From IMG/VR virus record IMGVR_UViG_3300043468_001158: a stretch of DNA of 64,000 nt. One strand, 5' to 3'. Positions 7,320-54,142 of this stretch are shown here, one piece after another. How positions within the stretch are numbered: position 1 is the stretch's first letter; each line of letters opens with the position of its first letter. The notes under the pieces were generated by a model. The model made no database searches. It was given only the letters and a program-made list of their open reading frames with translations, and had not been told where the DNA came from. Origin of the DNA: a virus (lineage: Duplodnaviria; Caudoviricetes). A program made the translations under genes and the position numbers.

Positions 7320-10300
7320 CTGCGTTGTTTACAATAGTTTCTGGAGTAACGGTGATGATGCTATGAACTGAAAGTCTTGAAGTTTTGAAGATGTCAGTGA
7401 ACTCATAGTTATTGGCAAGTGCATCATTTAGCACCTCAAAGAATAGTTCGTTGATATGTTGTGGCAAAGCATGTCTCCAGATATAGTCTAAAACTTGACG
7501 AGTAGAAGCCGGTGTCACGAACCAAGTTGATGATTGTGATAGGTCTAACCCGTTGATAGTTGCTGTAGTATTTATCCCGTTTAGATAAACTGAAGTTTTA
7601 GGATTTAGAATGCTATTAGTTAGTGAAGCAATAATCAATGAACGGTCAGCTAATACTTGGTCATCTCTAAAACCATAACGAGTTCTTGTACCATGTCTTT
7701 CATCATATAAGACTTTGTTCAATGCAGGTATTGCTTGACCTGCCAGGTTAGTACCGGCAGCAGAGTCAACAAGTTTGTTCCAAAGTGTAAGAGGTATCTT
7801 CATATCTTGTTGAGGTCTAATCAATGTCCATTCAGTATGAGAGTTCTTCAAATCAAGGTCTTGTGGGTTATCACGTAAGCTAAAGTCACGCGTAAAGCGA
7901 AGCTTATACGTATTATCCTTATTAACCATCATGTTCAATCCAGCAATCGTAATACCATGATAAGCGCCATCAAACAACTCTTGGAAAGTTAAGTAAGTAG
8001 AAGGTCCTTCACGAAGTAATTGAGCAGATTGCTGACAAGTCAATTGCTTATTACCTACAGGCACTGTCTTATCTTTTACCCAAAAGTAATAAGTATCGCC
8101 AGTGATATTACCAGAACTATCACGTGAAGGACGTATAACATATTGATAGTCTGACTTATATTGAGTTTGGATACTTGGGTCATCAGATACATCAGGGTCA
8201 AAAGCAAGTTCATCAGAAGTTGGTTCATAAGCAGACATAATAGCAACTACTTCATGTCCATGTGGAATAGCTTGAGTAGTTGAAATCAAAGTCCCGTTAG
8301 TTGAATAGAATGTACGAGGTTGGCTAATGCCATTCAAGTATAGACGTAATGTATTGTCCGCTATTCGGTTAGAAGAAGTAACTTGCAAGTCTAATGTATT
8401 ACCACTTCCAAACTTACGAATGACTTCTTGTTGCAATAATATCCAATCACCCCAAACAGGATTGAACTTTTCAACTGTGGTCCCGTCATTCAATACGAGT
8501 GGCTCTTTTTCATATGCAACAATTTCGTCAATCACTTGTCTTACCGAAGGCACTTCAACATAATCGCCATACACTGGAGTCCAACTATTATGTGGGTATT
8601 TGAGGTCGTTATCAAGTATCTCTTGGGTTGGAACATTGTAACCAATCCAACCGTATTCGTCAAGTACAGTAGAAGTGCTATTCTCGATGCCAATAGAACC
8701 AGTAGATGCATCATACCCAATGACAACCATAGCACCAATAGTGCCAAGTTCATCTATGACTTGTTGAGCATCTACTCCACTAGCAAAGTAATCAGGATGT
8801 ACATTCACATTGATAGTAATATGTCCAAGATTGAAGCTAAAAGTTTCTACAAGAGGTTGAATTGCTAAAGCAACCGAAGTCAAGGTATCAATAGCAAGTG
8901 ATGATACGACTAATGATGAACCCGACGGTGTCGCTTGTATTAGTTTCAAGTAATAGGTATCATTAGTTGTATTAAGTTCTCCAGTTACTGAATATGTGCC
9001 AACTGAAGCAGTTGGGTTTTTCACAAAAGTGACTTCACTAAATGCATTGATGCCGGTCACTGTCAATTTGTTATCATATGACACTGGCAAATTGATAGGT
9101 AACACATTGTCCAAAATCGAATGAGGGAACTGAATAAGTACTGTCACTGGAGCAACTTCTTTGATTTCCAAGTTGAACAGTCCAACATCAGGAGATAAGA
9201 CTTGTTGAAGGGCAACACTTATCTCAGCACCTGTCATAGTAGCGACAGCAGTTGTTGCTATCATCTTGATACCTAATTGAACGAAGTCAATTTCATAAGA
9301 CCCGCCAACTTGACCACTATAGTCGTATAGTGGTTGGGTAACAGATAGAGACCCACCTGATGCTTGTTCAATAGCACGAATGTAATAAGTTGAACCAACT
9401 TGACTCCATTCAAATTCAATATGACCAATTGCTGCACCTTTGTAGTTCTTGTTATCAGACCAAACAAACTGAATAACATCGAAGTAATTCCCGTCACCAG
9501 CACTTACGTGCATATCACCAGAATGATAACCATCACTTAATGTAAACGCGATTGGTCCGTTAAGTATTGCTTCACCATAAGGTTTGCCACCTAAGAACCC
9601 GCTAAAATGCATACCTGGCACTAACCCGTATTGTGCAAAGCGACCTTTCTCTAACGAGACAAACGTTTCGCCAACACCTGGGCTATTCAATGTCAAACGA
9701 GTTGTTCCTGCTTTGAACAATTGAACATCTTGTGCTTCAGGTGGAGTTGGAACATATGACCATGCAATAGGTCTTGCTTCCCAAGTTCTTGTTCTTTTGT
9801 ATGATTGCTTACGAGCAGCTTTACCAGTTTTCTTATCTTCAAGTGCAACGTCTGCTGACAATTGGTCGATTGCAGAACGAGCATCATATTCACTTGGAGC
9901 TATTGAAGACTTAACCCATTCGTAGACATTGATTGACGAGTATTCAGCCATGCTACCCCAACGGCCAAGTCTTTCTTCAAAAGTTGGAAAGATTTGCTTG
10001 TCATGGTAAGGCACATATTCAAGTAGTGTTTTGTCCCACCAAGTTCTTCCTACCTCTCTGTCACCCCATGATTTTTGAGGGTCAAAGTTAGGGTTCTTAA
10101 CAGTCAAAGTTGAATAGTTGTAGAATGCAGGGTCTTTTTCCGATACAACATTGATGACTTCCATTGCAATAGCAGTATGATTATCAAATGCTGGATGCCA
10201 AGTAGTAATGTCTTCAATCAAAGCTCTATCAACATAGTCAAACAGTTTGATTGGTGAGAACTTTGGTTTAGCTGGAACTTGAAGTTCAAACTCATAAGTT

Positions 10301-13300: not shown

Positions 13301-16300
13301 TTGATGTTATACACAGAACCTAATGGGTCATACGAGTTTTGAATAGCAAACTTAGCTAATTCATATTGCAAATTGTAAGGGTCTTGATAGACTGGGTTAG
13401 AAATATCCCATCTAAGAGTATTAACAGAAGAACCTAAAGTAGAAGCATCATAGAGTTTTTGTTCTGCTTTTAGAACTAATGCATTCACTATATCTTGGAT
13501 ATTGACAACAACCCAATTCAGCGGAGTTGAAGTAATATCCCATACTAAAGTTGTTGCATTGTAAAGTCTAAGTTCATTCGTAATTCGATTATACCAAGAC
13601 TTACCACTTGGGTTCAACACACCAGATACATCAGGTGCAACTTCACCTTCATAATCAACTGAAAGATACTTAAGCTCTGTACCATTATACCATAATTGAC
13701 CTCTATAAGGTTGAGTTGGCATCGAGACCGAAACTGTTCCTCGCGTAATAGTTCCATCATATCGTAATACTTCAGCTAAAGCAATGTTATGCGACAATGT
13801 TGAGTCTGCTGTAAAGATTGGAGATTGGTGTCCATCATGATGAATGGTAACATGTGCATCAAGTTCAAAGTCATATACTTGTAATGGTTGAACTGCATTC
13901 ATCATTCCCATCATTGGTAAAGTGATTGGCCAATATGTAATAGGCGCAGTTGTTGAACTGAACGCACCAACTGCAGCACCTTTTAGAGCATAATCTGCTT
14001 CATACATACTAAACAAGTTATCAAGACTTCCGTCAGCTGACATACCTAGTGCTTCGGGTAAAGAAGTCAAAATGTATTCAGGAATAGAGTTTAGTGCATT
14101 TCCATATTGAAGTTCTGCAAAATCTAACAACGAAATCGGAGTCAAATCTTGTTGGTTCAATAATGAGAAGAATAAGTTATGAGCTCCATTCAATGTTTTG
14201 ATTTTGCCACCAAAACCTGGGTTAGCATTTTGCAATAATCGATAGTTATTAGAACCAAATGAACTTCCAAAGAATTCAGGTTGATTTGCTATAGTGTTGA
14301 TAAAGTGATTAGACAAATCGCCAAATAGAATTTCAGAACGGTTTTCACGTTCAGGGTTCATCATCAATTGGGGAGGCGTAAGCCAGCATCCTGGATGATT
14401 GACATCATTGTAGATTGTACCTGTTTTTGGCATGCCATCTGCATCACTTATTGCATAACGAGGTTCTTCGTACGATGATGCAACACGGAATATCATATTA
14501 TCGCTTTGGGCACTAGTAAATGTTACTGAAGATGGAACAGGTGCATCAAAGTTGAATGCGATGAAATCACTATGATAAGTTGAACCGATTATCGCATTAG
14601 GTAATTGACCCGCTTTTGAACCTCTTACTTCATATGTTGTTGGGTTCTTATAGGTTAGTGTCCAAGTTTCGTTATTTGTATAGATAGAAGCTTCGATACC
14701 AGAGATGACAATGAATACCTCACTCTGGCTATATGTTCCATTAGCTTTTGGATGAATGAAGAACGAGATGTCCCCTGATGAACTTGTATAAGGAGTTCCT
14801 GCTACTGCATCGGGTGTCTGAATACCTGCTCTTGAACCTGTGACAGTAAAAGTAATCCCATCACTTTGTGGAACAATAGTCCATGTTTGACTATCAAGAA
14901 TTGGATTGATTTCAAGCGAAGTTAGATTGCCCGTACCACTTCTATCAATGATGGCTTCATTTACATAAGGTTCAACCGGTTGTTCTGATGAACGCCAAAT
15001 GGTTCTGATAACGCCATCCTGTTTGAATGCAAGCATTCTTCCATCGCTATCAGGGGTTTTGAGTCCTTGAGCAAAGTAAAAGTTACCCGTCTTATCTGCT
15101 TTGACACGACGTTGAAGCACAGCATCAAAATCTTCATTAGGGTCTTCGACATAGTAAAAGATTGAAGAAGTCCATGGAGCTTTAGTTCCATCAAGAGGCC
15201 AATATAAGTTGAACAGCGGAGGCTGATTGAACCTTGACTTGACTTGACCTGGAACAAGTTCAAGACCTTCATCATACTCAATGATTGGTCTTGTTGCGCG
15301 TTGAACTTCACCACTAGGATTTAGTCCAAATAGATGTAAATCTTTGCCATGAACCCAATAGTTAGAAGTTTGCCAATCAGAAAGTGGTTCTAGGTTAGCA
15401 TCCTCAGTATAAGTTTCTGCGTCTAAAGATTTGAACATCTTGCCATGATTAGTCGTTCCACTCTTTACATATACTTCTATTCCATTATTAGAGTAAGAAC
15501 CTTCTGTATCATATGTGCGAACCCAATTACCAGCAGAGACTAAGTAGATACCATTCTCACTTGATACCGCTTGGTTCTTGACTAATACTCTCATACCTTC
15601 AGTAAGAGTTACTCCATCTATAGAAGTAAAGGATAAAGTTCCTCTTGTTCCTGATAAGACTCCTGTTCCAATTCCGGTAAAACTTATTTGCGCAGGTAAA
15701 GTTGAAAGATGTTCAACTTGAATAGTAAACATATCTCCACTAACAAAAGGATTAGTTCCAACTTCAATAGTGAAAGCTAAAGGTTTAGAACCGCCTCCGC
15801 CTACATAAGTATAAGTTGAACCGCTAAAAGATATTGACTCAGGAATTGCATCAATAGAACCAACAATAGTAAATGACGTCGGTCCAGTAAAAGTTATAGT
15901 CCAAACTTGATTGAGTTTACCTGTTCCATTTAGAGCTTCAAGCGGGTTAGTTGTTGCTAATAAGACTGGAAGTTTCTGTTTACTTGATAGAGAAGGTTTA
16001 GCAATAGTATAGTATTCAGGTTTCTTTAGAGGGTTCCAACTAATATTTTCATAAGGTAAAGAAGATTGAACCCAAAAGTAACTTGAGTAATTTGCAAACT
16101 TGTCAATGTCAGTAGGTGGTGCAAAATTGAAAGCTTTTGATGACATCCAAGAACTTACTGTTGATAAGTCAATTCCAGAGATTTCTGCTTTGTTCAATAA
16201 GTCCGCAAATGACAGGAAATATTCTTCAGTTCCAACTTTAGTAGCTATCATTGGAACAAATTGGTTGAAAGCACGTTCAATACTTGATTGTGTTACCCAA

Positions 16301-16552: not shown

Positions 16553-16791
16553 AAAAACTGACAGACTATATAATTGATTTCACCTGTGTCTAAGCAGTTG
16601 ATTTTATTACTCGAAAAACTGACAGACTAAGGGTATATATTATATTCAGTTGTCTCTCCCTCTTCTTCATTTTCATATCATTTTCTCTTTTACTTCTGGT
16701 TTGTCTTTTTCTAAGTAGTTGATTTTATTACTAAAAATATTTATCATTATCTTCGTAACTTATTGATTTATATACTAGTTTTCAAACACAT
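16553..16791. repeat. Copy 1 of a ~240-bp dispersed inverted repeat (non-coding, three IHF-consensus sites)
   Basis: 16598-16791 is the reverse complement of 53904-54097 with 1 mismatch in 194 bp. 16553-16581 matches 54114-54142 exactly. Internal direct repeat AAAAACTGACAGACTA at 16553 and 16614. Confidence 0.95.
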
Positions 16792-16829
16792 TATTTTTAC
16801 CGACCGATATGGCAGTACTTTTTAAGCAA

Positions 16830-35963: not shown

Positions 35964-37688
35964 ATGGCAACTTTACAAAGTTACTTCAGAATAATCACTC
36001 CAGTATCGAGTCAGAAGCAATATACTCAATTGCATGCTGACTCGACTAATATGAATGGACCTAACGGGTTCTCAAACGCTGCATCGTCTGTTGCTTTTCT
36101 AACTCAAGTAATGAAAGGCGCTGGAACTCGTATGCAACGATACATTCAGTATGATAGCATGGATAATGATATTGACATCTCTCGTGCTCTTGATATTATC
36201 GCTGAAGAAATATCAAATGACGACGAAACCACCAATCTTCCATTCGAAATAGAGTATCAAACTGAAGATGACCAGGAAGTATCGGAAAATACCGTTACTA
36301 CTATTCGTGCGGCTCTTAGACAATGGTCTCGCGTTCAAGACTTTAGCAATCGCATCTTCCGCATTGGTCGCATTATGTCAAAGTATGGCGACTGCTTCTT
36401 CAAGAAGTCGGCTGATACTAAAAAGTGGGAATACCTTGACCCATCTAAAGTATTGGGTATCTATCTTGACGAAAATGGTGACCGAGTTGCATACCAACTA
36501 AAAGGCGATGGTGGTGGAATGGTTGGATATGCAGGTAAGGTGACTGATGTAGAGGTCGTACCTGCTGCAGGGATTATCCACTTTACCCTGTCTGATGACA
36601 TGGGTGAAAGTGCTCCATTCGGCGAAAGTGTTCTTCAACCAATCTTTAGAACCTTCAAACAGCTTTCAATGTTAGAAGACTCTGTCATCATCTACCGTCT
36701 TGTTAGGGCACCTGAACGTCGAGTCTTCTATGTTGACGTTGGTAATATGCCTCAACAACGTGTTAAGCAATATCTTGAGAACATCAAGAATGAGATACGT
36801 CAAAAGAGAATGCCTAACACAACCAACAATCAAGACGTCATCGACGGAACTTATAATCCTAACAGTATCTCTGAAGACTATTACTTTCCAGTGACTGCCT
36901 CAGGTCGTTCTTCTCGTGTAGAAGTATTGCCAGGTGGCGAAAACTTGGGTGAATTGAATGAGTTGAAATACTTCCGTGAAAAGCTTTACAAAGGCTTACG
37001 TGTTCCAACCTCTTACTTAGGTGGAGCAGATGCACAACCTCAACAATACAATGACGGTAAGTTAGGTGTTGCACTTCTTGACGAGTTACGATTTGCCAAC
37101 TACATCCGTCGATTACAGAACAAGATTGAATGTGTGATGGACGAACAGTTCAAACTCTATCTCAAAACGATTGGTATCAATGTCGAAGATTGGTTATTCC
37201 TTCTTAGATTACCTGAACCACAAAACTTTGGTATCTACCGTCAAAATGCTCTTGACTCAGACTTAATCAATGCATTCAAATCGATTGAAGATGTCAAACA
37301 GTTGTCAATGAGATGGAAACTAAAACGTTACTTAGGCTTAACTGAAGATGACTTGCAAATGAATGAGAAAATGCTCAAACAAGAACTTGAGATTGATGAA
37401 GATGCTAATGTTTCTGATTTACGTCAAATCTATGACCCAGTTCAAATGGAAGCTAGACAAGCCGCGAAAATCAAACCTAAACATATCGAGTCAGATGAAG
37501 CTCCGGCTGGTGGAGGCGGAGGCGGAGATGAGTTAGGTATGGACATGGGAGGAGGAAGCCCTCCTCCAGGTGATGATTTAGGTGGTGGTCTTGGTGGTGA
37601 TTTAGGTGGTGGTCTTGGTGGTGGAGCTGACGACATGGGACTTGGAGCACCAGGAGCCGGTGGTGGCATGGACAATTTAGGTCTATAA
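35964..37688 (+). CDS. gp20: Portal protein gp20
   Basis: LSMLEDSVIIYRLVRAPERRVFYVDVGNMP, EDYYFP, VEVLPGGENLGE, LRVPTSYL; Gly/Asp-rich C-terminal tail. Confidence 0.95.
   Translation: MATLQSYFRIITPVSSQKQYTQLHADSTNMNGPNGFSNAASSVAFLTQVMKGAGTRMQRYIQYDSMDNDIDISRALDIIAEEISNDDETTNLPFEIEYQTEDDQEVSENTVTTIRAALRQWSRVQDFSNRIFRIGRIMSKYGDCFFKKSADTKKWEYLDPSKVLGIYLDENGDRVAYQLKGDGGGMVGYAGKVTDVEVVPAAGIIHFTLSDDMGESAPFGESVLQPIFRTFKQLSMLEDSVIIYRLVRAPERRVFYVDVGNMPQQRVKQYLENIKNEIRQKRMPNTTNNQDVIDGTYNPNSISEDYYFPVTASGRSSRVEVLPGGENLGELNELKYFREKLYKGLRVPTSYLGGADAQPQQYNDGKLGVALLDELRFANYIRRLQNKIECVMDEQFKLYLKTIGINVEDWLFLLRLPEPQNFGIYRQNALDSDLINAFKSIEDVKQLSMRWKLKRYLGLTEDDLQMNEKMLKQELEIDEDANVSDLRQIYDPVQMEARQAAKIKPKHIESDEAPAGGGGGGDELGMDMGGGSPPPGDDLGGGLGGDLGGGLGGGADDMGLGAPGAGGGMDNLGL
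37575..37622 (+). repeat. 24-bp tandem duplication in the portal C-terminal tail
   Basis: GATTTAGGTGGTGGTCTTGGTGGT x2, encoding DLGGGLGG. Confidence 0.9.
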
Positions 37689-37753
37689 AAATCAAAGATT
37701 ATCCTAAATAGATAATCACTTAAAAATCTACAAATACATGGAGAGACAATATC

Positions 37754-38374
37754 ATGTCACAACAAATATTACTTACTGAAGACCTAACTCCTGATCAAGC
37801 TAACTTAATTGAAAGCATTGATGATGGCAAAAACTATTATCTTTCTGGCATTATGATGCAAGCAGGCGTTATCAATGGAAATGGCCGCGAGTATCAATTA
37901 GCAGAAATGTTGAAAGTTGTTGAAGAAAACTCTAAAAAGATTGCAAGCGGTCAGCTAATCATGGGTGAGCTGACCCACCCTAACAATATCGCTATCAACC
38001 TTGCCAACGTATCTCATGCTATTACTGAAATGAGAATGGATGGTTCAAACGTAGTTGGTAAAATGAAACTTTTGAATACTCCATCTGGTCAAATTGCAAA
38101 AGCGATTCTTGAAGGTGGTGTTAGACTTGGTGTTTCTTCTCGTGGTACAGGTTCAGTCGGTGCTGACGGTAAAGTATCTGGCTTTAGCTTTGTGACTGTT
38201 GATATCGTTGATAATCCTTCAGCTCCTGATGCTCGCCCTAACCTTGTTCGTGAAAGCTTAGAAAATCAAAAGATAGTAACCTTAGCTGAAATTGTGGTAG
38301 AAGACAAAAGTGCTCAAAAGCATTTAGAAAAAGAAATCAAAAAATTCTTACTATCAATAGTTACAAAAAAATAA
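37754..38374 (+). CDS. gp21: Prohead protease gp21
   Basis: NGNGREY, GELTHP, GVSSRGTGS, TVDIVDNPSAPDA. TAAATA at 37705-37710. Confidence 0.95.
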   Translation: MSQQILLTEDLTPDQANLIESIDDGKNYYLSGIMMQAGVINGNGREYQLAEMLKVVEENSKKIASGQLIMGELTHPNNIAINLANVSHAITEMRMDGSNVVGKMKLLNTPSGQIAKAILEGGVRLGVSSRGTGSVGADGKVSGFSFVTVDIVDNPSAPDARPNLVRESLENQKIVTLAEIVVEDKSAQKHLEKEIKKFLLSIVTKK

Positions 38375-38395
38375 AGAACCAGGGAGAAAATAAAA

Positions 38396-38872
38396 ATGAA
38401 ACCAGAAAAATCAATGAAAGAATTGTTTGAAATTGCTGGTATTAAAGATATTGATAAAGCTCTATCTTTGATTACCGAAGTTAATCTACGAGAAGTCGAC
38501 CTTACTACAAAACAAATTGCCGATAAAATAAGTGCAGCATTTGAAAAAGATTTTGGTTCGCTTAGAACCAGCGAAACTGAAAACCTGTCGAATAAAATGT
38601 ATAAGCTAATTGTAGATAAAGATTTTCTTGATGGAAAAACACCTGTTGCTAGATTTAGAATACCAGTTATTACAAAAGCAAATGATTTGCATAACATTCA
38701 CAATTCTTATGAAGCATTTAACAAAATACTAGATAAGTTCTACAATTCTTTACGTAATGAAGGATATCTTATAACTCAACCAAAAGGCGGGTATATTAAG
38801 GGTGATACTTGGGAAGGCAATGGAACAGTTGGAAATATCATGACATTTTTTGTAGCAGGAAAACCGGAGTAA
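38396..38872 (+). CDS. Paralog array member 1 (putative internal head protein)
   Basis: N-terminus MKPEKSMKELFEIAGIKDIDKALSLITE shared with 38879 and 41124. Confidence 0.65.
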   Translation: MKPEKSMKELFEIAGIKDIDKALSLITEVNLREVDLTTKQIADKISAAFEKDFGSLRTSETENLSNKMYKLIVDKDFLDGKTPVARFRIPVITKANDLHNIHNSYEAFNKILDKFYNSLRNEGYLITQPKGGYIKGDTWEGNGTVGNIMTFFVAGKPE

Positions 38873-38878
38873 GTCAAA

Positions 38879-39505
38879 ATGAAATCAGAAAAATCAATGA
38901 AAGAGCTGTTTGAGATTGCAGGTATTAAGGATATTGACTCAGCTCTGTCTTTGATTACTGAGGCATCAACTTCATCAGCAGGTTGGGCAGACTGGAATGA
39001 TACTTTACGAGATGCGTTACAGATAATACTTATTGGTAAAGAACTTACCCGAGTTACTTTATCTGACCCATCATCAGCAGTCATTATAAAAAATGTTGCA
39101 TTTAATTCTTTTCGTGACCCTGAGAAATTGTTAATCATTTATGATAAAACTATAGATTGGCATCCGCTAAGAGAGCATAAAGAATATCAACAAGGCATGC
39201 TCAAGAAGATAAAAAGCTTTTTACCAAAAGGTAGTAAAGTGGGTGGATATGAAAGTCAAAACTATCAATCACAAGGGATGATAGGCATTGATGGAGTAAA
39301 AATAAAAGCTCAATATCCTGGCAATTATGTTGGCGGTTTATTGTCTAATGTCAAAGATAAAGTTCCGGTTATAGTTGGAGCTAAAGCATCAGAACAATTA
39401 TTAGAGGCAGCAAAGATTGTCAATGACGCCATTAAGAATAACGTAAATGTCATTGCATGCCAACGAGAACTAATTGAAAAGAATTTAGACGAGTACGCAG
39501 AATAA
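38879..39505 (+). CDS. Paralog array member 2 (putative internal head protein)
   Basis: N-terminus as member 1; C-terminus ACQRELIEKNLDEYAE shared with members 3 and 4. Confidence 0.65.
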   Translation: MKSEKSMKELFEIAGIKDIDSALSLITEASTSSAGWADWNDTLRDALQIILIGKELTRVTLSDPSSAVIIKNVAFNSFRDPEKLLIIYDKTIDWHPLREHKEYQQGMLKKIKSFLPKGSKVGGYESQNYQSQGMIGIDGVKIKAQYPGNYVGGLLSNVKDKVPVIVGAKASEQLLEAAKIVNDAIKNNVNVIACQRELIEKNLDEYAE

Positions 39506-40098
39506 TGAAAATTAACGAACTATTTACTGAAGCAGCACCAACTAAGTTTAATAAAGACCTATACGTTTTAAATTATATAAAAGAAAAACTTATTGGAAAA
39601 ACATTAGTGATGCATAATGAAAACATGGCAGTACGTGATTCACGTAGTATGATGAAATTAGAAATAACTGATATTGATATATGGAAACGTGGATGGAATG
39701 ATTATCAGATTTATGTAAATGGACTTAAGAAGATGCCTATATGGCATAATCCAAGTAAGAAAGCGCTAATGCATCCCTATGGAGATAATTCTATAATTTC
39801 TCAAATTAAAGTACTTCTCGGAACTGATATGAGTTTTTCTGTTAGTTGGACTGAAAATGGGCAACAATCAAAAAACTCTTTAGGAGTTTTTATTGATATG
39901 TGGGAGTATGATAATAATTTTAAAGGGGGCTTATTGCATCATCTTAAATCTAAAAAACCAATTTTAGTTGGCCCAAATGCCAGTAGTGAATTAAGAATGT
40001 CGGCTGATATTATCAATTCTTGTATTCAAAAAAATACCGACATCGTTGCATGTCAACGAGCATTAATTGAAAGAGACTTAGACGAGTACGCAGAATAA
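39505..40098 (+). CDS. Paralog array member 3 (putative internal head protein)
   Basis: MKINELFTE start; C-terminal GGLL...ACQRALIERDLDEYAE. Confidence 0.65.
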   Translation: MKINELFTEAAPTKFNKDLYVLNYIKEKLIGKTLVMHNENMAVRDSRSMMKLEITDIDIWKRGWNDYQIYVNGLKKMPIWHNPSKKALMHPYGDNSIISQIKVLLGTDMSFSVSWTENGQQSKNSLGVFIDMWEYDNNFKGGLLHHLKSKKPILVGPNASSELRMSADIINSCIQKNTDIVACQRALIERDLDEYAE

Positions 40099-40700
40099 TG
40101 AAAATTAATGAACTGTTTGAAAAGGTAACTTTACAAGAAGCATCGTTAGGATTTGCTGAGCATAATGATATTCTATTGTTTTTTATTCAAAAGAAACTTG
40201 TCAAAAAACAATTGAAAACCAGTAAATCGCTAATCATTGATGAAGTAACCAAAATAGCTTCTCCTGATAGTAAAGAATATAACATTAGTTATACAATTCA
40301 AGGTGAAGAACCAGGTCCACGTAAACATCAAGTAGATTACAATGAAGATGCGGAAAATTTAGCAATTTCAAAAGAAAAACAATTATTTGGAAAATTAATT
40401 GAACCATTAATTGCTAACGGGACACAAGTTGAAGTTTTACGTCAATCACGAAATTTTGTTAAAGGCAATGGTTCTTTTGGCACAACAATACAGGTGCCAA
40501 TTCAATACGACAATAAGTTTGTTGGTGGTTTATTGCGTCATGTCAAAGAAGGAATCCCTGTTATCATTGATGAAAATGCAATACCTGCGTTAAAACAAGC
40601 AGCAAAAAAAATAAATGAATATGTTTTAAAAAATAACACAGACATTATTGCATGTCAACGAGAAATGATTGAGCGTGATTTAGACGAGTACGCAGAATAA
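40098..40700 (+). CDS. Paralog array member 4 (putative internal head protein)
   Basis: MKINELFE start; C-terminal GGLL...ACQREMIERDLDEYAE. Confidence 0.65.
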   Translation: MKINELFEKVTLQEASLGFAEHNDILLFFIQKKLVKKQLKTSKSLIIDEVTKIASPDSKEYNISYTIQGEEPGPRKHQVDYNEDAENLAISKEKQLFGKLIEPLIANGTQVEVLRQSRNFVKGNGSFGTTIQVPIQYDNKFVGGLLRHVKEGIPVIIDENAIPALKQAAKKINEYVLKNNTDIIACQREMIERDLDEYAE

Positions 40701-40741
40701 CAAAATTTAACCCCCGAACACTTCATACGGAGAATTATAAA

Positions 40742-41119
40742 ATGAAAGACTTTGAAAAACTAATGAAAATTGCTGGAATTACTAATATCAATGAAAATGC
40801 TTTCAGCCAAAGCATTTATAGTGATGAAAAAGATTTTGAAACTAAAGAAAAAGCAATCAAAGGAAAACTCTTTAATGATCTTAAATCAAAAGATGAAAAG
40901 AAAATTGCATATGACTTAATATCAGAAGCAGAGCTTCTTCTTGGTCAATTCAATATGATGGTAAACGATTTTGATAAGTATCTTGGTGTTCCTAAAACTG
41001 AAAGATTTTACCATGAAGTAGTACGTTTTGGTGAGGCACTTCAGGCTCATTGTAAAAAAATAACCGGGTTTGACGGCGTTCAATCCTTAAATTTACATGT
41101 ACATAGCTTAAAGGACTAA
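40742..41119 (+). CDS. Paralog array member 5 (putative internal head protein)
   Basis: MKDFEKLMKIAGITNINE start containing the IAGI motif. Confidence 0.6.
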   Translation: MKDFEKLMKIAGITNINENAFSQSIYSDEKDFETKEKAIKGKLFNDLKSKDEKKIAYDLISEAELLLGQFNMMVNDFDKYLGVPKTERFYHEVVRFGEALQAHCKKITGFDGVQSLNLHVHSLKD

Positions 41120-41123
41120 GATA

Positions 41124-41423
41124 GTGAAAACTCTTCAACAACTATTTGAAATTGCTGGCATCAAAGACATTGATAAAGCAATGGCAATTCTGAATGAAGA
41201 CGACTTTCACACAATACTTTACAAGATTGATAAATGGATGCCTAGTGATTTATCAATTCAAGATGAGTATGATGATTTAGTTAGTAAAAAACATAAATCT
41301 TCAGCTGATGTTGAAGATTTAGCAGCTTTATTGTATAGAGAAGCAGATGAAGAAGTATTAAAGAAATACGGTTTTAGTGGTAATTGGAAAGCTTTAGCTA
41401 ATTATATTATTACTAATAAATAA
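41124..41423 (+). CDS. Paralog array member 6 (putative internal head protein)
   Basis: GTG start; LQQLFEIAGIKDIDKAMAILNE. Confidence 0.6.
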   Translation: MKTLQQLFEIAGIKDIDKAMAILNEDDFHTILYKIDKWMPSDLSIQDEYDDLVSKKHKSSADVEDLAALLYREADEEVLKKYGFSGNWKALANYIITNK

Positions 41424-41471
41424 AATCTAATAATGTAAATAGATTTTTATAATAATTGTAGTAGGAGATTT

Positions 41472-42203
41472 ATGTATTCGTTTTATCTAATTTATAGAAC
41501 TATATGTATAGTGAATAATAAATTTTATATAGGAAAACATAAAACAAACAATCTTAACGATAATTATTTAGGTAGTGGAAAACTTCTAAAAACCGCTATT
41601 GCCAAATATGGCAGAAATAATTTTGTTAGAGAAATATTACATTTTTGTTCCTCAGAAGAAGAAATGAACGAGTTAGAGACAAAAATTGTAAATGCCGAAA
41701 TGATTATGCGAGAAGATACTTATAATATTGCTATTGGCGGACAAGGAGGGTTAGGTGTAGCTCAATGTATTTCTGACGAAAAACGAAAAGAAATGACTGA
41801 TAGAATGGCACAAACCAAATCGGGAAGGACAAAAGAAGATTTTGAGTATCTACAGCGAATTAGTAATAAACTGCTTGGTAAAAATAAATTTAATACAGAA
41901 CATCATAGAAAAAATTCAGAAAGAATGTCTAAAGAAAATAAAGAAAACTCTGAAAGATGTAGAACACATTCTGAATTTATGAAAATAAAAATGAAAGGAG
42001 CAAATAATCATAATGCAAAAAATTGGATATTAGAAAATCCAATCGGAGAAGTGATTGAGACCGGAGACATAACGCTCTTTTGTCAAGAACTTGATTTAGC
42101 ATATTCAATTTTTAGATATAAAGCTCAAGTTCAAAACACTCTTCCTGTAACTAGGGGTAAAAGTAAAGGATGGAAAGTCATTTCATCATATTCAAAAACG
42201 TAA
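41472..42203 (+). mobile_element. Free-standing GIY-YIG (Seg-like) homing endonuclease
   Basis: YLIYRTICIVNNKFYIGKH...YLGSG...E...YN GIY-YIG motifs plus NUMOD-like C-terminal region; TAAATA at 41436-41441. Confidence 0.88.
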
Positions 42204-42224
42204 TAAAACTTAGGAGATACACAT

Positions 42225-42404
42225 ATGTCAGAAACGAAAGATTCAATAAGAAACTTCATTCAAAGCTTAATTAAAGATAATACAACTCAAGCAGAAATGG
42301 ATTTACATCCAGTTTTTACCACTAAAATGAAAGAGATAGCCGGCATTCAATCAAAACCTTCAGGCGAAGATTCTATTTCTTCTGAAGAAGATAATGACGA
42401 GTAA
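42225..42404 (+). CDS. Small acidic prohead core protein (gp67-like), 59 aa; absent from the ORF track
   Basis: AGGAG RBS; translated MSETKDSIRNFIQSLIKDNTTQAEMDLHPVFTTKMKEIAGIQSKPSGEDSISSEEDNDE; directly before the scaffold gene. Confidence 0.65.
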   Translation: MSETKDSIRNFIQSLIKDNTTQAEMDLHPVFTTKMKEIAGIQSKPSGEDSISSEEDNDE

Positions 42405-42491
42405 AAATCAAATTTATAGGTAACTACTATAAATAAAGTTAGCACCCTTGAATTAGGGTTTTAGATAATCAATATATCTTTGGAGGTAAAT

Positions 42492-43412
42492 ATGGATGAA
42501 ATTTTACAAAAGTTGTTAGAAACAGACCTACTTAGCGAAGACACAAAAACCGAAATCTCAGAAGCATGGGCTGAAGCTGTTGAAGCTAAGCGTGCAGAAA
42601 TTAGAGAAGAAGTATCTTTGGAAGTTCGCGCAGAGTTAGCTGAACAATTTGTTGTTGCTCGTGAAGCATTAGTCGATAAGGTTGATGCATTTGTTACTGA
42701 ACAACTAAAACAATCATACATCGAATTGAAAAGCGATATCGAACGTTTTCGCGATTTGGAAGCTGAGTTCGCTGGTAAACTAGTTGAAGAAAAGAAAAGA
42801 TTAGCAGAAGAAGTTGAGTCTGAAATCGAGTCTTTAGTTGATAAATTGGATTCTTTCTTGGAAGTTAGACTTTCAGAAGAATTTGAAGAAATGAAAGAAG
42901 ATTTAGAAGTTGTAAAACAAAATGACTTCGGTAAACGTGTATTTGAAGCGTTCGTAACCGAATATTCAAAATCATATGTTGATGAAACTTCTATTCAATC
43001 ACAATTAAGTATTGCAGAAAGTAAATTGGCTGATGCTGAAAAACGTATGCAAGAAGTTGAAACTGAAAAAGCACAATTAGTTCGCGAAGCTAAAATGCAA
43101 GACGTGTTAAGACCACTTTCTGGTTCAAAACGTGAGCAAATGAGTTTTGTTTTACAAAACGTTGAAACTGAAAAATTAGAAGAAGCTTATGGTTACTTCA
43201 TCGGTCGTATTTTGAAAGAAGAAGCTGCTGCACCTAAATCATCCGCTACTGTCGCAAAAGACAAAGTTATTTCTGAAGACAAAGCTTTAGAAGACGCAGT
43301 CGTTCTTGCAACTGGTGATGATGAAACTAAACAGCCAATCATTTCTGAACAACAACAAAAATCTATTGCTGATTTAGCGTTCTTAAAAAGAATTGCCGGC
43401 ATAACATCTTAA
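42492..43412 (+). CDS. gp22: Prohead core scaffold protein gp22
   Basis: Acidic coiled-coil protein before the major capsid gene; GGAGGT RBS before ATG 42492; TATAAATA at 42428-42435; C-terminal LKRIAGI. Confidence 0.85.
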   Translation: MDEILQKLLETDLLSEDTKTEISEAWAEAVEAKRAEIREEVSLEVRAELAEQFVVAREALVDKVDAFVTEQLKQSYIELKSDIERFRDLEAEFAGKLVEEKKRLAEEVESEIESLVDKLDSFLEVRLSEEFEEMKEDLEVVKQNDFGKRVFEAFVTEYSKSYVDETSIQSQLSIAESKLADAEKRMQEVETEKAQLVREAKMQDVLRPLSGSKREQMSFVLQNVETEKLEEAYGYFIGRILKEEAAAPKSSATVAKDKVISEDKALEDAVVLATGDDETKQPIISEQQQKSIADLAFLKRIAGITS

Positions 43413-43450
43413 AAATAAAATCTTAATATATCTGAATAGGAGTTAACTAT

Positions 43451-44743
43451 ATGGAACTTTTTGAAAATTGGTCACAAACCAAAGAAGCTTTACTAACTGA
43501 ATTACCTGCTCATAAAAAAGCCTACATGGGCCGTATTATGGAAAACACTAAACAACAGTTGATGGAAACTGCTGCTGCTGGTGTTAACGCTGCAGGCGCA
43601 ATTGGTAATTTCCAAAAAATCATTATCCCAATGATTCGTCGTATTATCCCTGGCACTATCGCTACTGAACTTGTTGGTATCCAACCAATGTCAGGTCCAG
43701 TATCTTTAGCGTACTCATTACGTTTCCTTTTCTCTCAAAATACTGATGTTCCAACTGTTAGTTATGTTACTAATCCAGATGGAACTATTTCTGCTGTGAA
43801 CTTAACACCAGGTGCTGGTCCTGAAGACATCATCGGTGCTGGTTTAGTTGACCCAGTAACTGGTACTTATTTAGGTGCTACTGAAGTATTTGGTAACAAC
43901 AGCAAAACTAAACGTTGGTATTCTGGTGCAATCAATGCTGGTGGTATGGCTCTTGGTACTGCAGCTCTTACAGCTGACTTCGAAGCGTACGGCGGACGTC
44001 AATTGCAATTAGAAGTATTGAAACAAACTGTTACTGCTGGCTCACGTAAATTACAAGCTAAATGGACAGTTGAAGCGATGCAAGACCTTTCAGCACAACA
44101 TGGTTTAGACCTTGAAGCTGAAATCACTGCAGCTCTTTCTGCTGAAATCGTTTCTGAAATCGACAACGAAATCATCAATGACTTGATTGCTCTTGCTGGT
44201 ACTGTTGAAACTTTCGACATGAATGGTACTTTCACTGGTGTTCCTAACTATGTTGGTGACCGTCATGCAGTTCTTGGTACTTTAATCAATAAAGTTGCAA
44301 ACGAGATTGCTCGCAAAACTCGTCGTAATGCAGCTAACTGGATTGTTGTATCTCCAATCGTTGCTTCAGTATTACAATCTGCTGCAAAATCAGTATTTGC
44401 TCCAGCAGTAAGCGGTTCATTCGAAGGTCCTAACAACACCAAATTGATTGGTACTTTAAACGGTTCTATCAAAGTTTACACTTACATCTATCATGACACT
44501 GGTTCTGAGCCAATCTTGGTTGGTTACAAAGGTGGAAACGGCGAAATGGATACCGGTTATTTCTACTGCCCATACGTTCCACTTATGAGCTCAAACGTAT
44601 TGTTTGACCCTGCAACTTACAACCCACAAGTAAGCTTGATGACAAGATATGGAAAAGCTACATTTACCGATACTGCTACTTCGTTGGGCAATAGTGCCGA
44701 TTACTATGGTCGTGTGAATGTTGCAAATCTTTCATTCATCTAA
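43451..44743 (+). CDS. gp23: Major capsid protein gp23
   Basis: VGIQPMSGPVSLAYSLR, SRKLQAKWTVEAMQDLSAQHGLDLEAE, EIDNEII, FYCPYVPL, SLMTRYG. Confidence 0.97.
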   Translation: MELFENWSQTKEALLTELPAHKKAYMGRIMENTKQQLMETAAAGVNAAGAIGNFQKIIIPMIRRIIPGTIATELVGIQPMSGPVSLAYSLRFLFSQNTDVPTVSYVTNPDGTISAVNLTPGAGPEDIIGAGLVDPVTGTYLGATEVFGNNSKTKRWYSGAINAGGMALGTAALTADFEAYGGRQLQLEVLKQTVTAGSRKLQAKWTVEAMQDLSAQHGLDLEAEITAALSAEIVSEIDNEIINDLIALAGTVETFDMNGTFTGVPNYVGDRHAVLGTLINKVANEIARKTRRNAANWIVVSPIVASVLQSAAKSVFAPAVSGSFEGPNNTKLIGTLNGSIKVYTYIYHDTGSEPILVGYKGGNGEMDTGYFYCPYVPLMSSNVLFDPATYNPQVSLMTRYGKATFTDTATSLGNSADYYGRVNVANLSFI

Positions 44744-47023: not shown

Positions 47024-47788
47024 CTAGTTATCAAAATCGACAATATGTTGATGGAGCTTCTTGAGGAACCGCTTCCAAATGCGTTGGTCAAGTCGTTCTT
47101 CTGAAGTGCCAAAGTGTGTCCAATACTTGGTGATAGATGTGCCAATGGTGTCTTGTTTGGAAGTCTCGTTCTTTAGGTTATCTATAGAGTGCAAAATTTT
47201 GTTCTTGTCATTGTCAAATCTATTCATTAGCATCTCTGCTGTATTGACAGCAAGTGCTTCAATTTCTGATGGGTTGCTAAGGTAAGGCTTTATCATCACT
47301 TCCCCTTGGTCATCATGATAGTTAGAACGTTTGATGCTCTTTTCTGTAGGAGTTCTTTGGTTTTGAACTGCATGGGTTAGTTCATGCAGTAGGATAGCAA
47401 TGGCAAGAGAAATGAACTTGTCTCGCTTAGCATCTCCAAAGTAGGTTGCTTTATTGACCAAATCGAATGGTATGTAAAACTCTAACCCACCATACCCGGC
47501 TGCGAAAGAACCAATACGTGCATGTCCGCTGTCGAAGTAAGCTTCTTTAGCCCCTTGGATGACAACAGTCTTTACACCAAACTCTTTTAGCTCTTGTGCA
47601 ATTTTAAGTTCAAGCTTTTTGATGGCTTGGATGCTTTCACTTATTTGTTCTAATGGTTTATAATGTTCATCAAAGATTTCAAGCTTACCGGAAAGCTTTT
47701 CAAGCTCTAAGCGGATGATTTTGTTCAACTTTGCTCGTATATCGGTAAGATTGATTTTTTCAGTTAGGAAGAGTTCGCGTACTTTCAT
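47024..47788 (-). CDS. Zincin-like metallopeptidase (HExxH), late-promoter gene
   Basis: ILLHELTHAVQ and YLSNPSEIEALA; MKVRELFLTE start; TAAATA at 47827-47832 (minus strand). Confidence 0.7.
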   Translation of the reverse strand: MKVRELFLTEKINLTDIRAKLNKIIRLELEKLSGKLEIFDEHYKPLEQISESIQAIKKLELKIAQELKEFGVKTVVIQGAKEAYFDSGHARIGSFAAGYGGLEFYIPFDLVNKATYFGDAKRDKFISLAIAILLHELTHAVQNQRTPTEKSIKRSNYHDDQGEVMIKPYLSNPSEIEALAVNTAEMLMNRFDNDKNKILHSIDNLKNETSKQDTIGTSITKYWTHFGTSEERLDQRIWKRFLKKLHQHIVDFDN

Positions 47789-53762: not shown

Positions 53763-53903
53763 ATGAACGAGAACCTTTGTTTGAAAGTGTTTGTATAAGT
53801 ATATTTTATCACTATTTATGACACCCATAAACATCAAAATATGATTTTCTTCAAAATCCTCATTTTTCTTCAAAAATTGCCGAGTGATTAGTCATGGAAA
53901 ATG

Positions 53904-54142
53904 ATGTGTTTGAAAACTAGTATATAAATCAATAAGTTACGAAGATAATGATAAATATTTTTAGTAATAAAATCAACTACTTAGAAAAAGACAAACCAGA
54001 AGTAAAAGAGAAAATGATATGAAAATGAAGAAGAGGGAGAGACAACTAAATATAATATATACCCTTAGTCTGTCAGTTTTTCGAGTAATAAAATCAATAA
54101 GTTACACCTAAGCGAAATCAATTATATAGTCTGTCAGTTTTT
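53904..54142. repeat. Copy 2 of the ~240-bp dispersed inverted repeat
   Basis: Reverse complement of 16553-16791; WATCAANNNNTTR at 53927, 53971 and 54092. Confidence 0.95.

Follow-up and report, generated by a model that had tools for sequence, protein, structure and literature searches.

A variable array of leader-tagged genes between the prohead protease and scaffold genes of a lake jumbo phage resembles the internal protein genes of T4

The capsid-targeting sequence of bacteriophage T4 is the classic phage route for bringing ready-made proteins into the cell. In the T4 record, the internal proteins IPII and IPIII both begin with MKTYQEFIAE|A. The first ten residues of IPIII are reported to suffice for packaging, with positions 4 and 7 used in targeting and positions 8 and 10 in processing (PMC9026906). 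T4 Ip1, Ip2 and Ip3 are each reported to inhibit a distinct GmrSD restriction enzyme (PMC12373910). Large sets of head proteins have been described in the phiKZ-like phage SPN3US, which has ejection proteins with propeptides and two families of head paralogs, A and B, the latter with 20 members (PMC5694885). Modular shuffling at short conserved PeSL cassettes is reported for T4-type genomes (PMC2839356, PMC4122927), and recombination-driven amplification for T4 (PMC9391042). Here we analyse a 64,000-nucleotide (nt) stretch of viral DNA (Caudoviricetes; IMG/VR record IMGVR_UViG_3300043468_001158; hereafter the window), in which six small genes, M1-M6, lie in the head operon. We consider it probable, at about 0.62, that M1-M6 encode hypervariable capsid cargo resembling the T4 internal proteins, in cassettes that would be exchanged at conserved junctions.

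The source of the window is a freshwater (lake) jumbo phage with a T4-type head, kin of RsoM2USA and XacN1. Its major capsid protein (MCP) is 60% identical to that of RsoM2USA, 55% to that of XacN1 and 41% to that of PA5oct, all of them jumbo phages. The gene order on the + strand is portal, S77 protease, M1-M6, GIY-YIG endonuclease, gp67-like protein, scaffold and MCP (Table 1). An earlier reading of the letters alone (the sequence-only reading) had claimed an array of six genes between gp21 and gp22, and we confirmed six open reading frames (ORFs) on the same strand at 38396-41423. They are separated by 0-41 nt, and the M2/M3 and M3/M4 pairs overlap by their stop and start codons as TAATG (39505, 40098). 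A near-identity DNA search with 5.8 kb of the locus and a tblastn search with M4, both against 50,697 phage records, returned zero matches.

All six products start with a short leader of 9-28 residues, of which there are two types: leader A (..L.EIAGI..) and leader B (MKINELFE; MQxFKQYLxE in relatives). The sequence ..ELFEIAGIKDID.AL.LITE/ILNE occurs in M1, M2 and M6, and MKINELF opens M3 and M4, both as the sequence-only reading had it; M5 contains a weaker copy of leader A (LMKIAGITNINE). M1 and M2 are 87% identical over residues 1-30, with no similarity beyond, and M1 and M6 are 62% identical over 24 residues. A short N-terminal tag common to otherwise unrelated proteins is thus what one finds in M1, M5, M6 and genes of relatives. 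M2 and M3/M4 belong to one homologous family, yet M2 has leader A, and M3, M4 and their relatives have leader B; the switch is at a conserved ..TE|AS site.

Leader A is, judged by sequence, a copy of the conserved C-terminal peptide of the scaffold, which is also found in the gp67-like core protein. The motif [LIMF]..[ILM][AG]G[IV] has seven matches in the six-frame ORFs of the window, six of which lie within 38.4-43.4 kb. These six IAGI-type matches are in M1, M2, M5, M6, the 59-residue protein (MKEIAGI) and the end of the scaffold (FLKRIAGITS). Across the clade, the scaffold motif L..LKRLAGIK is present in 36 of the 39 distinct C-termini listed, and it also ends the scaffolds of PA5oct, XacN1 and RsoM2USA. 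A small acidic protein with ..KTREVAGL.. is encoded directly 5' of the scaffold gene across the clade; these proteins are orthologs of the 42225-42404 product, the build of which was compared with T4 gp67 and whose PA5oct counterpart is EST35_0151. The N-termini of the protease and the scaffold themselves resemble leader B (compare the start of T4 gp22, MLKEQLIAEA), and the protease N-terminus, MSQQILLTE, includes an [LI]xE site. The L-x-E|TA site of the capsid propeptide (N-terminal L.ETA) is conserved in the clade. As a separate observation, T4 gp68 (gene 68, L124 2224-2649) ends with ..KALKRRKALGLS, like the scaffold end of the clade, and T4 gp22 does not; the terminal peptide may go back a long way among core proteins of the T4 type.

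Using the protease as query, we retrieved 66 related loci, and 55 sources (the window and RsoM2USA included) contain both protease and scaffold. The variable genes of this interval open with M..R.L.LAG[LIV]..E (leader A) or MK[ILV].EL[FL]..E (leader B). Among the 104 unique ORFs of the protease-scaffold interval, 26 have the leader-A pattern, compared with 5 of 601 ORFs from other parts of these loci (Fisher P 1e-18), and three of those five sit just 5' of the protease.

M2, M3 and M4 have a second constant part. The C-terminal GGLL...ACQR..IE..LDEYAE claimed for these three is found in all of them, in a C-module of ~60 residues (..LL..LK......A..IIN.....CQ.ELI...L..YA..). A profile of the module matches only M2-M4 among the window ORFs, so M1, M5 and M6 are not members. 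The further claim of unrelated middles fits half of the array: the bodies of M1, M5 and M6 are unrelated to the others, whereas M2-M4 are paralogous along their whole length, with 34% identity for M2/M4 (over 194 residues) and for M3/M4 (over residues 1-197). Run against 1.84 billion representatives, a profile of the M2-M4 family matched 38 proteins. Six match over their full length; in the others the match is confined to the last ~60 residues, at their own C-termini, and most of them start with leader B. A scan of viral contigs gave 51 loci, in 50 of which 280 ORFs (134 unique) carry the C-module. These genes often form long head-to-tail arrays (14 consecutive genes in L074) beside genes for tail-tube, gp4-like head-closure, small-terminase, neck and sheath proteins, and in relatives arrays also occur away from the protease. 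M2-M4 are a local branch, without leucine-rich repeats (LRRs), of a family that consists of a leader, a variable middle (often LRR) and the ~60-residue C-module. The family is unnamed and is far larger elsewhere in related genomes than at the window locus.

Searches of Pfam and PHROGs with M1-M6 gave no family match, the best weak one being M2 to phrog_3532 (E 6e-4); in Pfam, nothing was found at E <=0.01 for M2-M6, and M1 had only a weak Sds3 hit below the cut-off. Scans of family proteins against Pfam (17) and PHROGs (14) yielded LRR_4 below threshold, a single family of unknown function and nothing else, and literature searches aimed at the C-module family found no description of it. The window C-modules end with ..EYAE followed by the stop codon, and most family members end with ..EYAEL or ..EYAEF; the shorter ending differs by one base at the stop/start overlap and is common to the three window copies and their closest relatives. 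A large AAA-type ATPase of 840-874 residues adjoins family arrays (RsoM2USA ORF86, L123 9936-12458; L090 108-2732). The L090 protein matches phrog_1297, and ORF86 is also listed among the RsoM2USA virion bands. This ATPase is a candidate partner or loader for the C-module family.

The leaders look like T4 capsid-targeting sequences that would end at gp21-type cleavage sites. In the consensus of 124 family proteins, F is the commonest residue at position 4 (37/124), F, L or Y occur at position 7, L is the commonest at position 8 (40) and E at position 10 (37). The T4 tag positions (aromatic at 4 and 7, I/L at 8, E at 10) are matched by the MQxFKQYLxE subtype and by RsoM2USA ORF89 (MKTFKQFLSE). 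The window peptide MKINELFE matches them only with F7 and an L-x-E at positions 6-8, and leader A is a different peptide. Of 124 family proteins, 107 have an [LI]xE site among their first 14 residues, compared with 158 of 528 controls (P 2e-31). Every M1-M6 product has a predicted [L/I]-x-E site at the end of its leader: ITE28 in M1 and M2, INE5 in M3, LFE8/LQE14 in M4, INE18 in M5 and LNE25 in M6. LFTE9 of M3 falls outside the gp21 consensus L/I-x-E.

The interval between protease and scaffold varies in size and in gene set from strain to strain, as expected by the sequence-only reading. Across the 55 sources it measures 56-4109 nt with differing contents, the window having the longest; in L019, L025 and L030 it is only 353-444 nt, with almost no gene. 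The closest relative, L003, is 98% identical to the window through the fifth base of M1 and then has a different leader-A gene (gene X). Its M2 matches that of the window with 93% DNA identity as far as 39424-39436. This M2 ortholog is 87% identical in amino acid sequence and has a different tail: the last ~70 nt of L003 M2 resemble the tails of L005 and L006 (..QEELIDN.LKDFAEL), unlike those of the window. L003 is without M3-M5, and its M6 is only 40% identical. The breakpoints in this comparison coincide with the edges of the modules, which agrees with the proposal of recombination-ready boundaries. L004 and L005 have one M4-like gene, a leader-A ORF that stops after 15 codons and is fused, out of frame, to the distal part of the M1 body, and an M6; this decayed, leaderless M1 body is 70% identical to that of the window. 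L006 and L007 have only M4-like and M6-like genes. The relatives of M6 are 74% (L005), 53% (L006/7) and 40% (L003) identical, and a set of 5.8 billion proteins contains only four M6 clusters. M5 has a homolog, P0062, at 92% identity. The longest contig is 7052 nt for each of the M4-like, M6-like and M5-like (P0062) proteins, so that the three possibly share one contig. The interval of XacN1 holds ~20 ordinary untagged genes and is thus uninformative about tags.

The homing endonuclease of the window is 99% identical in L003 and absent in L005-L007, and endonuclease-like genes interrupt the same interval, or that between portal and protease, in L020, L031, L041 and L053. A homing endonuclease in the array may add to local recombination. 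In one lake sample (run X4), contigs covering the last third of M2 and M3 (39194-40107) have a depth of 58-60, compared with 32-34 in the flanks, and at 39194 another sequence is joined on, which suggests that 39194-40107 also occurs in a different context, in a second strain or copy.

The junctions between the genes are themselves repeated. The 31-nt exact repeat claimed at 39485 and 40078 starts at these two positions, and its first 21 nt recur at 40680-40700, again as claimed. It is the core of a 76-nt family, D1, with three copies (100, 87 and 75% identity). A leader-A block of 96 nt is shared by M1 and M2 at their 5' ends (85% identity), with shorter copies at 40755-40797 and 41137-41179. 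In the window and four arrays, the last 45-60 nt of the genes and ~15 nt past the stop codon are 80-90% identical between genes, compared with ~30% alongside. Within the last 24 codons of M2-M4, the same codon is used in all three genes at 10 of 13 conserved residues (4.4 predicted; P ~7e-4), and the six final codons include minority codons. Such codon sharing points to recent shared descent or conversion of the block, although the bodies are only 34% identical. In four public runs, the contigs (k=31) are interrupted precisely at the 31-nt repeats. No joint expected from a deletion or duplication of M3 was seen in these four runs, where such breaks would conceal one. Many further contigs from these samples have just the 45-51-nt tail block in common (0-3 differences) before they diverge, which indicates that those samples contain more genes of the family.

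In the family, the tails are specific to the genome. Tail identity is 0.77 within genomes and 0.53 between genomes; the corresponding values for the middles are 0.31 and 0.29. In five reciprocal-best ortholog pairs from two genome types, body identity is 62% to the ortholog and 31% to paralogs in the same genome; for the tails the corresponding values are 65% and 88%. Genome-specific tails of this kind indicate concerted evolution; old conversion events and selection to fit a genome-specific partner are both possible causes.

Relatives of these proteins are reported in virions. RsoM2USA is the only cultured phage with a sequence match to the C-module family. Its tandem ORF88, ORF89 and ORF90 match the hidden Markov model (HMM) of the C-module with E values of 3e-18, 8e-12 and 3e-10, and they start with MKLHEISE.., MKTFKQFLSE.. 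and MSFKTFLES.., respectively. ORF89 (28.57 kDa; computed mass, 28.56 kDa) is one of the proteins to which ten bands of purified virions are said to 'most likely correspond' according to liquid chromatography-tandem mass spectrometry, and it is reported among the most abundant virion bands (PMC8504454). In PA5oct, a 73-residue protein encoded between portal and protease (EST35_0150, MKINDIITEG..) and the gp67-like EST35_0151 are both flagged in the record as detected by electrospray ionisation tandem mass spectrometry; the PA5oct paper has no text on gp150 or gp151. The sequence-only reading was to be given up if the proteins were absent from virions and the array invariant; what we found are relatives' proteins reported in virions and an array that varies.

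Structure prediction separates M4 from the typical family member. The AlphaFold2 model of M4 (predicted local distance difference test score, pLDDT, 71.8) is an alpha/beta domain with a disordered leader (residues 1-18) and no LRR solenoid. A Foldseek search of the PDB with this model found nothing at E <=0.001, and a wide VIA-align search gave generic alpha/beta folds (best Z 5.7) and no LRR matches. A typical member, P0024 (24-row alignment), was predicted with a pLDDT of 93.3; its model comprises a leader, an LRR-like solenoid and C-terminal helices. The structural neighbours of P0024 are weak, almost all LRR proteins, with no PDB match at E 0.001, and in Pfam it scores 21.6 for LRR_4, short of the cut-off of 27. 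An ESM Atlas search with P0032 gave no usable match. We also predicted the complex of the MCP (23-row alignment) with M6 (4-row alignment); the score was 0.00 in two runs, which speaks neither for nor against binding.

A place between protease and scaffold, terminal peptides in common with the scaffold and the same motif in the gp67-like protein would also suit accessory scaffold or core parts. Like T4 gp67 and gp68, M1-M6 would then build or size the prohead and be degraded and expelled rather than delivered. The resemblance of the T4 gp68 end (..RRKALGLS) to the scaffold end of the clade and the several internal [LI]xE sites in M2 and M4 fit such a role. Core parts should be conserved, yet strains with 98% identity in the flanks have different gene sets, and some relatives are nearly geneless here. 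M1, M5 and M6 have only 1-3 [LI]xE sites, compared with 13 in the scaffold, and a family member that is abundant in mature RsoM2USA virions is a misfit with degraded scaffold. We therefore regard accessory core parts as unlikely. The distribution of leaders bears on another alternative, in which the shared termini are mere features of a duplicated family with a cytoplasmic role (for example, in host takeover), inserted incidentally in the head operon. Mutually dissimilar bodies (M1, M5, M6, gene X of L003 and many others) share the leader, so that duplication alone is insufficient; leader A is nearly confined to the head module and matches peptides at the scaffold ends; and proteins have been detected in virions of RsoM2USA and PA5oct. 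On these grounds a cytoplasmic family seems distinctly unlikely, even though insertion hot spots of this kind are known (the interval has a homing endonuclease here, the untagged genes in XacN1), family arrays lie away from the protease in relatives, and a promoter of the array's own was not found in our scans.

Virion detection cannot separate inside from outside, and this leaves room for external virion proteins, for instance decoration proteins or LRR adhesins whose variation follows host range; M2-M4 would be a degenerate offshoot of these. The typical member is indeed an LRR solenoid with LRR binders as its nearest structures, and the large arrays adjoin tail-tube, neck and sheath genes. 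M2-M4, however, are not LRR proteins and lie within the prohead operon, an external protein has no use for an N-terminal leader with a protease site, and no fibre or decoration domain appeared in the Pfam or PHROGs scans. We consider this explanation very unlikely.

Several observations weigh against the assignment of M1-M6 to internal-protein-like cargo. Both virion detections are from distant relatives and are silent on whether the proteins are inside or outside the head and on their processing. The leader-B pattern is loose, its regular expression also matching 78 of 601 control ORFs, and 30% of control N-termini likewise have an [LI]xE site. The predicted mature forms of M4-M6 are acidic (isoelectric points of 4.8-6.1), and T4 internal proteins are described as basic (PMC9026906). 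Many family members are LRR solenoids, a fold that is also common in external adhesins, and the fold searches gave no match that points to a function. In the large arrays, the sharing of synonymous codons in the tails is barely above expectation (0.66 compared with 0.55, and 0.60 compared with 0.58), which indicates that junction identity there is mostly a constraint at the protein level; recent gene conversion as its source is weakened by this test. Finally, at least 99% of the words sampled from 37700-43500 are present in each of 19 lake or freshwater runs, which come from 17 studies (2020-2025). Of the accordion locus imagined by the sequence-only reading, the part that stood is the difference in copy number between relatives; the exact six-gene array itself is unchanged in the 19 runs, and over these five years turnover is slow.

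If M1-M6 are internal-protein-like cargo, the leader would dock the protein into the scaffolding core during prohead formation, and the adjacent gp21-type protease would cut at the [L/I]-x-E site. The freed body would stay inside the capsid and leave it with the DNA. Since leader A copies the peptide of the scaffold and the core protein, cargo with this leader would use the same contact as the core proteins. Cassettes would be duplicated, lost or swapped at the junction and leader-A DNA blocks by homologous recombination of the phage.

What the cargo might do can be proposed only tentatively, with the odds somewhat against it: by analogy with T4 Ip1-Ip3, and given the LRR binder fold of many members, the proteins could be binders or inhibitors of host defence proteins. 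A bolder and more doubtful idea is that of an injected combinatorial library for counter-defence. Each genome would encode dozens of tagged binders, many of them LRR solenoids. The middles would recognise host targets, and the C-module would serve as an adaptor to a single partner shared by them all, with concerted evolution inside each genome; the coding junction repeats would make new combinations, and one of the tags would copy a scaffold peptide. Were this true, it would be a counter-defence library without a described equivalent in phages.

The assignment as cargo, if it holds, means that the T4 principle is also at work in a distant, uncultured clade of jumbo phages, on a much larger scale (tagged arrays of 14 genes) and with a second tag that mimics the scaffold end. 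It would also provide a simple sequence rule by which candidate injected proteins can be listed in such genomes. The newly defined C-module family has 134 unique members in the loci fetched, unmatched in Pfam and PHROGs. The natural leader peptides are candidates for packaging foreign proteins, and the genome-specific tails raise the question of gene conversion or co-evolution with a partner.

The coordinates of the array and its neighbours are collected in Table 1. The window is AT-rich (G+C, 36.9%). It has seven T4 late-promoter boxes where 5.7 are expected, thus no enrichment, and none lies within the M1-M6 array; scans for sigma-70 promoters and terminators were at chance level, and no promoter of the array's own was seen. 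Two metatranscriptome runs contain the locus in full. One sample has RNA-to-DNA depth ratios of 0.27 (contig 37700-39514) and 1.46 (40079-43500), which are not as expected of plain DNA carry-over. The unequal ratios are a weak hint of transcription, and contig depth cannot rank genes.

Table 1. Positions of the array, its repeat blocks and neighbouring genes in the window.
Feature	Coordinates	Strand	Remarks
Portal	35964-37688	+	
Prohead protease, T4 gp21 type, peptidase S77	37754-38374	+	PF03420 E 8e-24; phrog_207 E 6e-54
Six-gene array M1-M6	38396-41423	+	between protease and scaffold
Leader-A block (ribosome-binding site and codons 1-28), families D2/D4	38383-38478; copy 38866-38961	+	
M1	38396-38872	+	leader A (residues 1-28, ..MKELFEIAGIKDIDKALSLITE) and 130-residue body unlike other members
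M2	38879-39505	+	leader A joined to body of C-module family; C-module HMM E 6e-22
Junction block (C-module end, stop/start overlap, leader B start)	39450-39525, 40043-40118, 40645-40720	+	
M3	39505-40098	+	leader B (MKINELFTE), paralogous body, C-module (HMM E 2e-22); start overlaps M2 stop
M4	40098-40700	+	leader B (MKINELFEKVTLQE), paralogous body, C-module (HMM E 4e-22); start overlaps M3 stop
M5	40742-41119	+	divergent leader A (MKDFEKLMKIAGITNINE) and unique 107-residue body
M6	41124-41423	+	GTG start; leader A (..LFEIAGIKDIDKAMAILNE) and 74-residue acidic body
GIY-YIG (SegE-like) homing endonuclease inserted in array	41472-42203	+	PF01541, PF19835, phrog_314 E 8e-39
Small acidic core protein, 59 residues, T4 gp67-like build	42225-42404	+	peptide MKEIAGI
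T4-late-promoter-like box TATAAATA	42428-42435	+	45 nt 5' of scaffold gene
Scaffold, gp22 type	42480-43412	+	phrog_10922 E 1e-22; C-terminus ..LAFLKRIAGITS; 13 [LI]xE sites
MCP, gp23 type	43451-44743	+	PF07068 E 4e-96; propeptide MELFENW..ALLTE..LME|TAAAG

Three further observations concern the surroundings. On the - strand of the window, 47024-47788 encodes a protein of 254 residues that starts with a leader-B-like MKVRELFLTE and is without C-module and without PHROG match; L005 has a counterpart at the matching place (15415-16179, MKISELFILHE..). From its N-terminus it may be another tagged head protein. An element of ~290 nt occurs twice in the window in opposite orientations (16553-16802 and 53853-54142), and in L092, L094, L098 and L101 it is found 2-3 kb or less from family genes (81-89% identity). 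In L050, the MCP frame (9027-10229) has one in-frame stop codon, for which a sequencing error, an intron and a pseudogene are all possible.

Among described systems, the T4 proteins IPI, IPII, IPIII and Alt come closest. There, as in the array, a short N-terminal tag that ends with L/I-x-E precedes otherwise unrelated small proteins, both phages have an S77 protease and a gp22-type scaffold (PF03420, phrog_207, phrog_10922), and the T4 ip genes, too, vary strongly between related phages. Positions 4, 7, 8 and 10 of the T4 capsid-targeting sequence are kept in the MQxFKQYLxE subtype of leader B and in RsoM2USA ORF89, and the window version has only F7 and a displaced L-x-E. The differences are equally plain. 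In T4, gene 21 is directly followed by gene 22 and the ip genes are elsewhere, whereas here the array lies in between. The window phage has a second type of leader, which copies the scaffold C-terminus, and its leaders are up to 28 residues long. A conserved C-terminal module is present in three of its members and is not seen in T4 IPII and IPIII. Several of the mature forms would be acidic.

SPN3US is likewise a giant phage, and the consulted part of its description reports large head protein families that vary in copy number and are processed by a gp21-like protease. It belongs to another phage lineage; that text gives several propeptides of >100 residues and describes no common C-terminal module, and it finds family A similar to pfam12699, a Pfam match that M1-M6 are without. 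The common C-terminal tail of herpesvirus protease and scaffold and the cargo-loading peptides of encapsulins also bring cargo in by way of a peptide of the assembly protein. The principle is the same and the cargo unrelated; in the window the peptide is N-terminal and is followed by a protease site. The PeSL cassettes of T4-type genomes, finally, resemble the blocks described here in being short, conserved sequences between variable genes, at which recombination would occur and gene content differs. They are promoter/terminator elements, whereas the blocks of the array are coding: either the 3' end of one gene with the leader of the next, or leader A with its ribosome-binding site.

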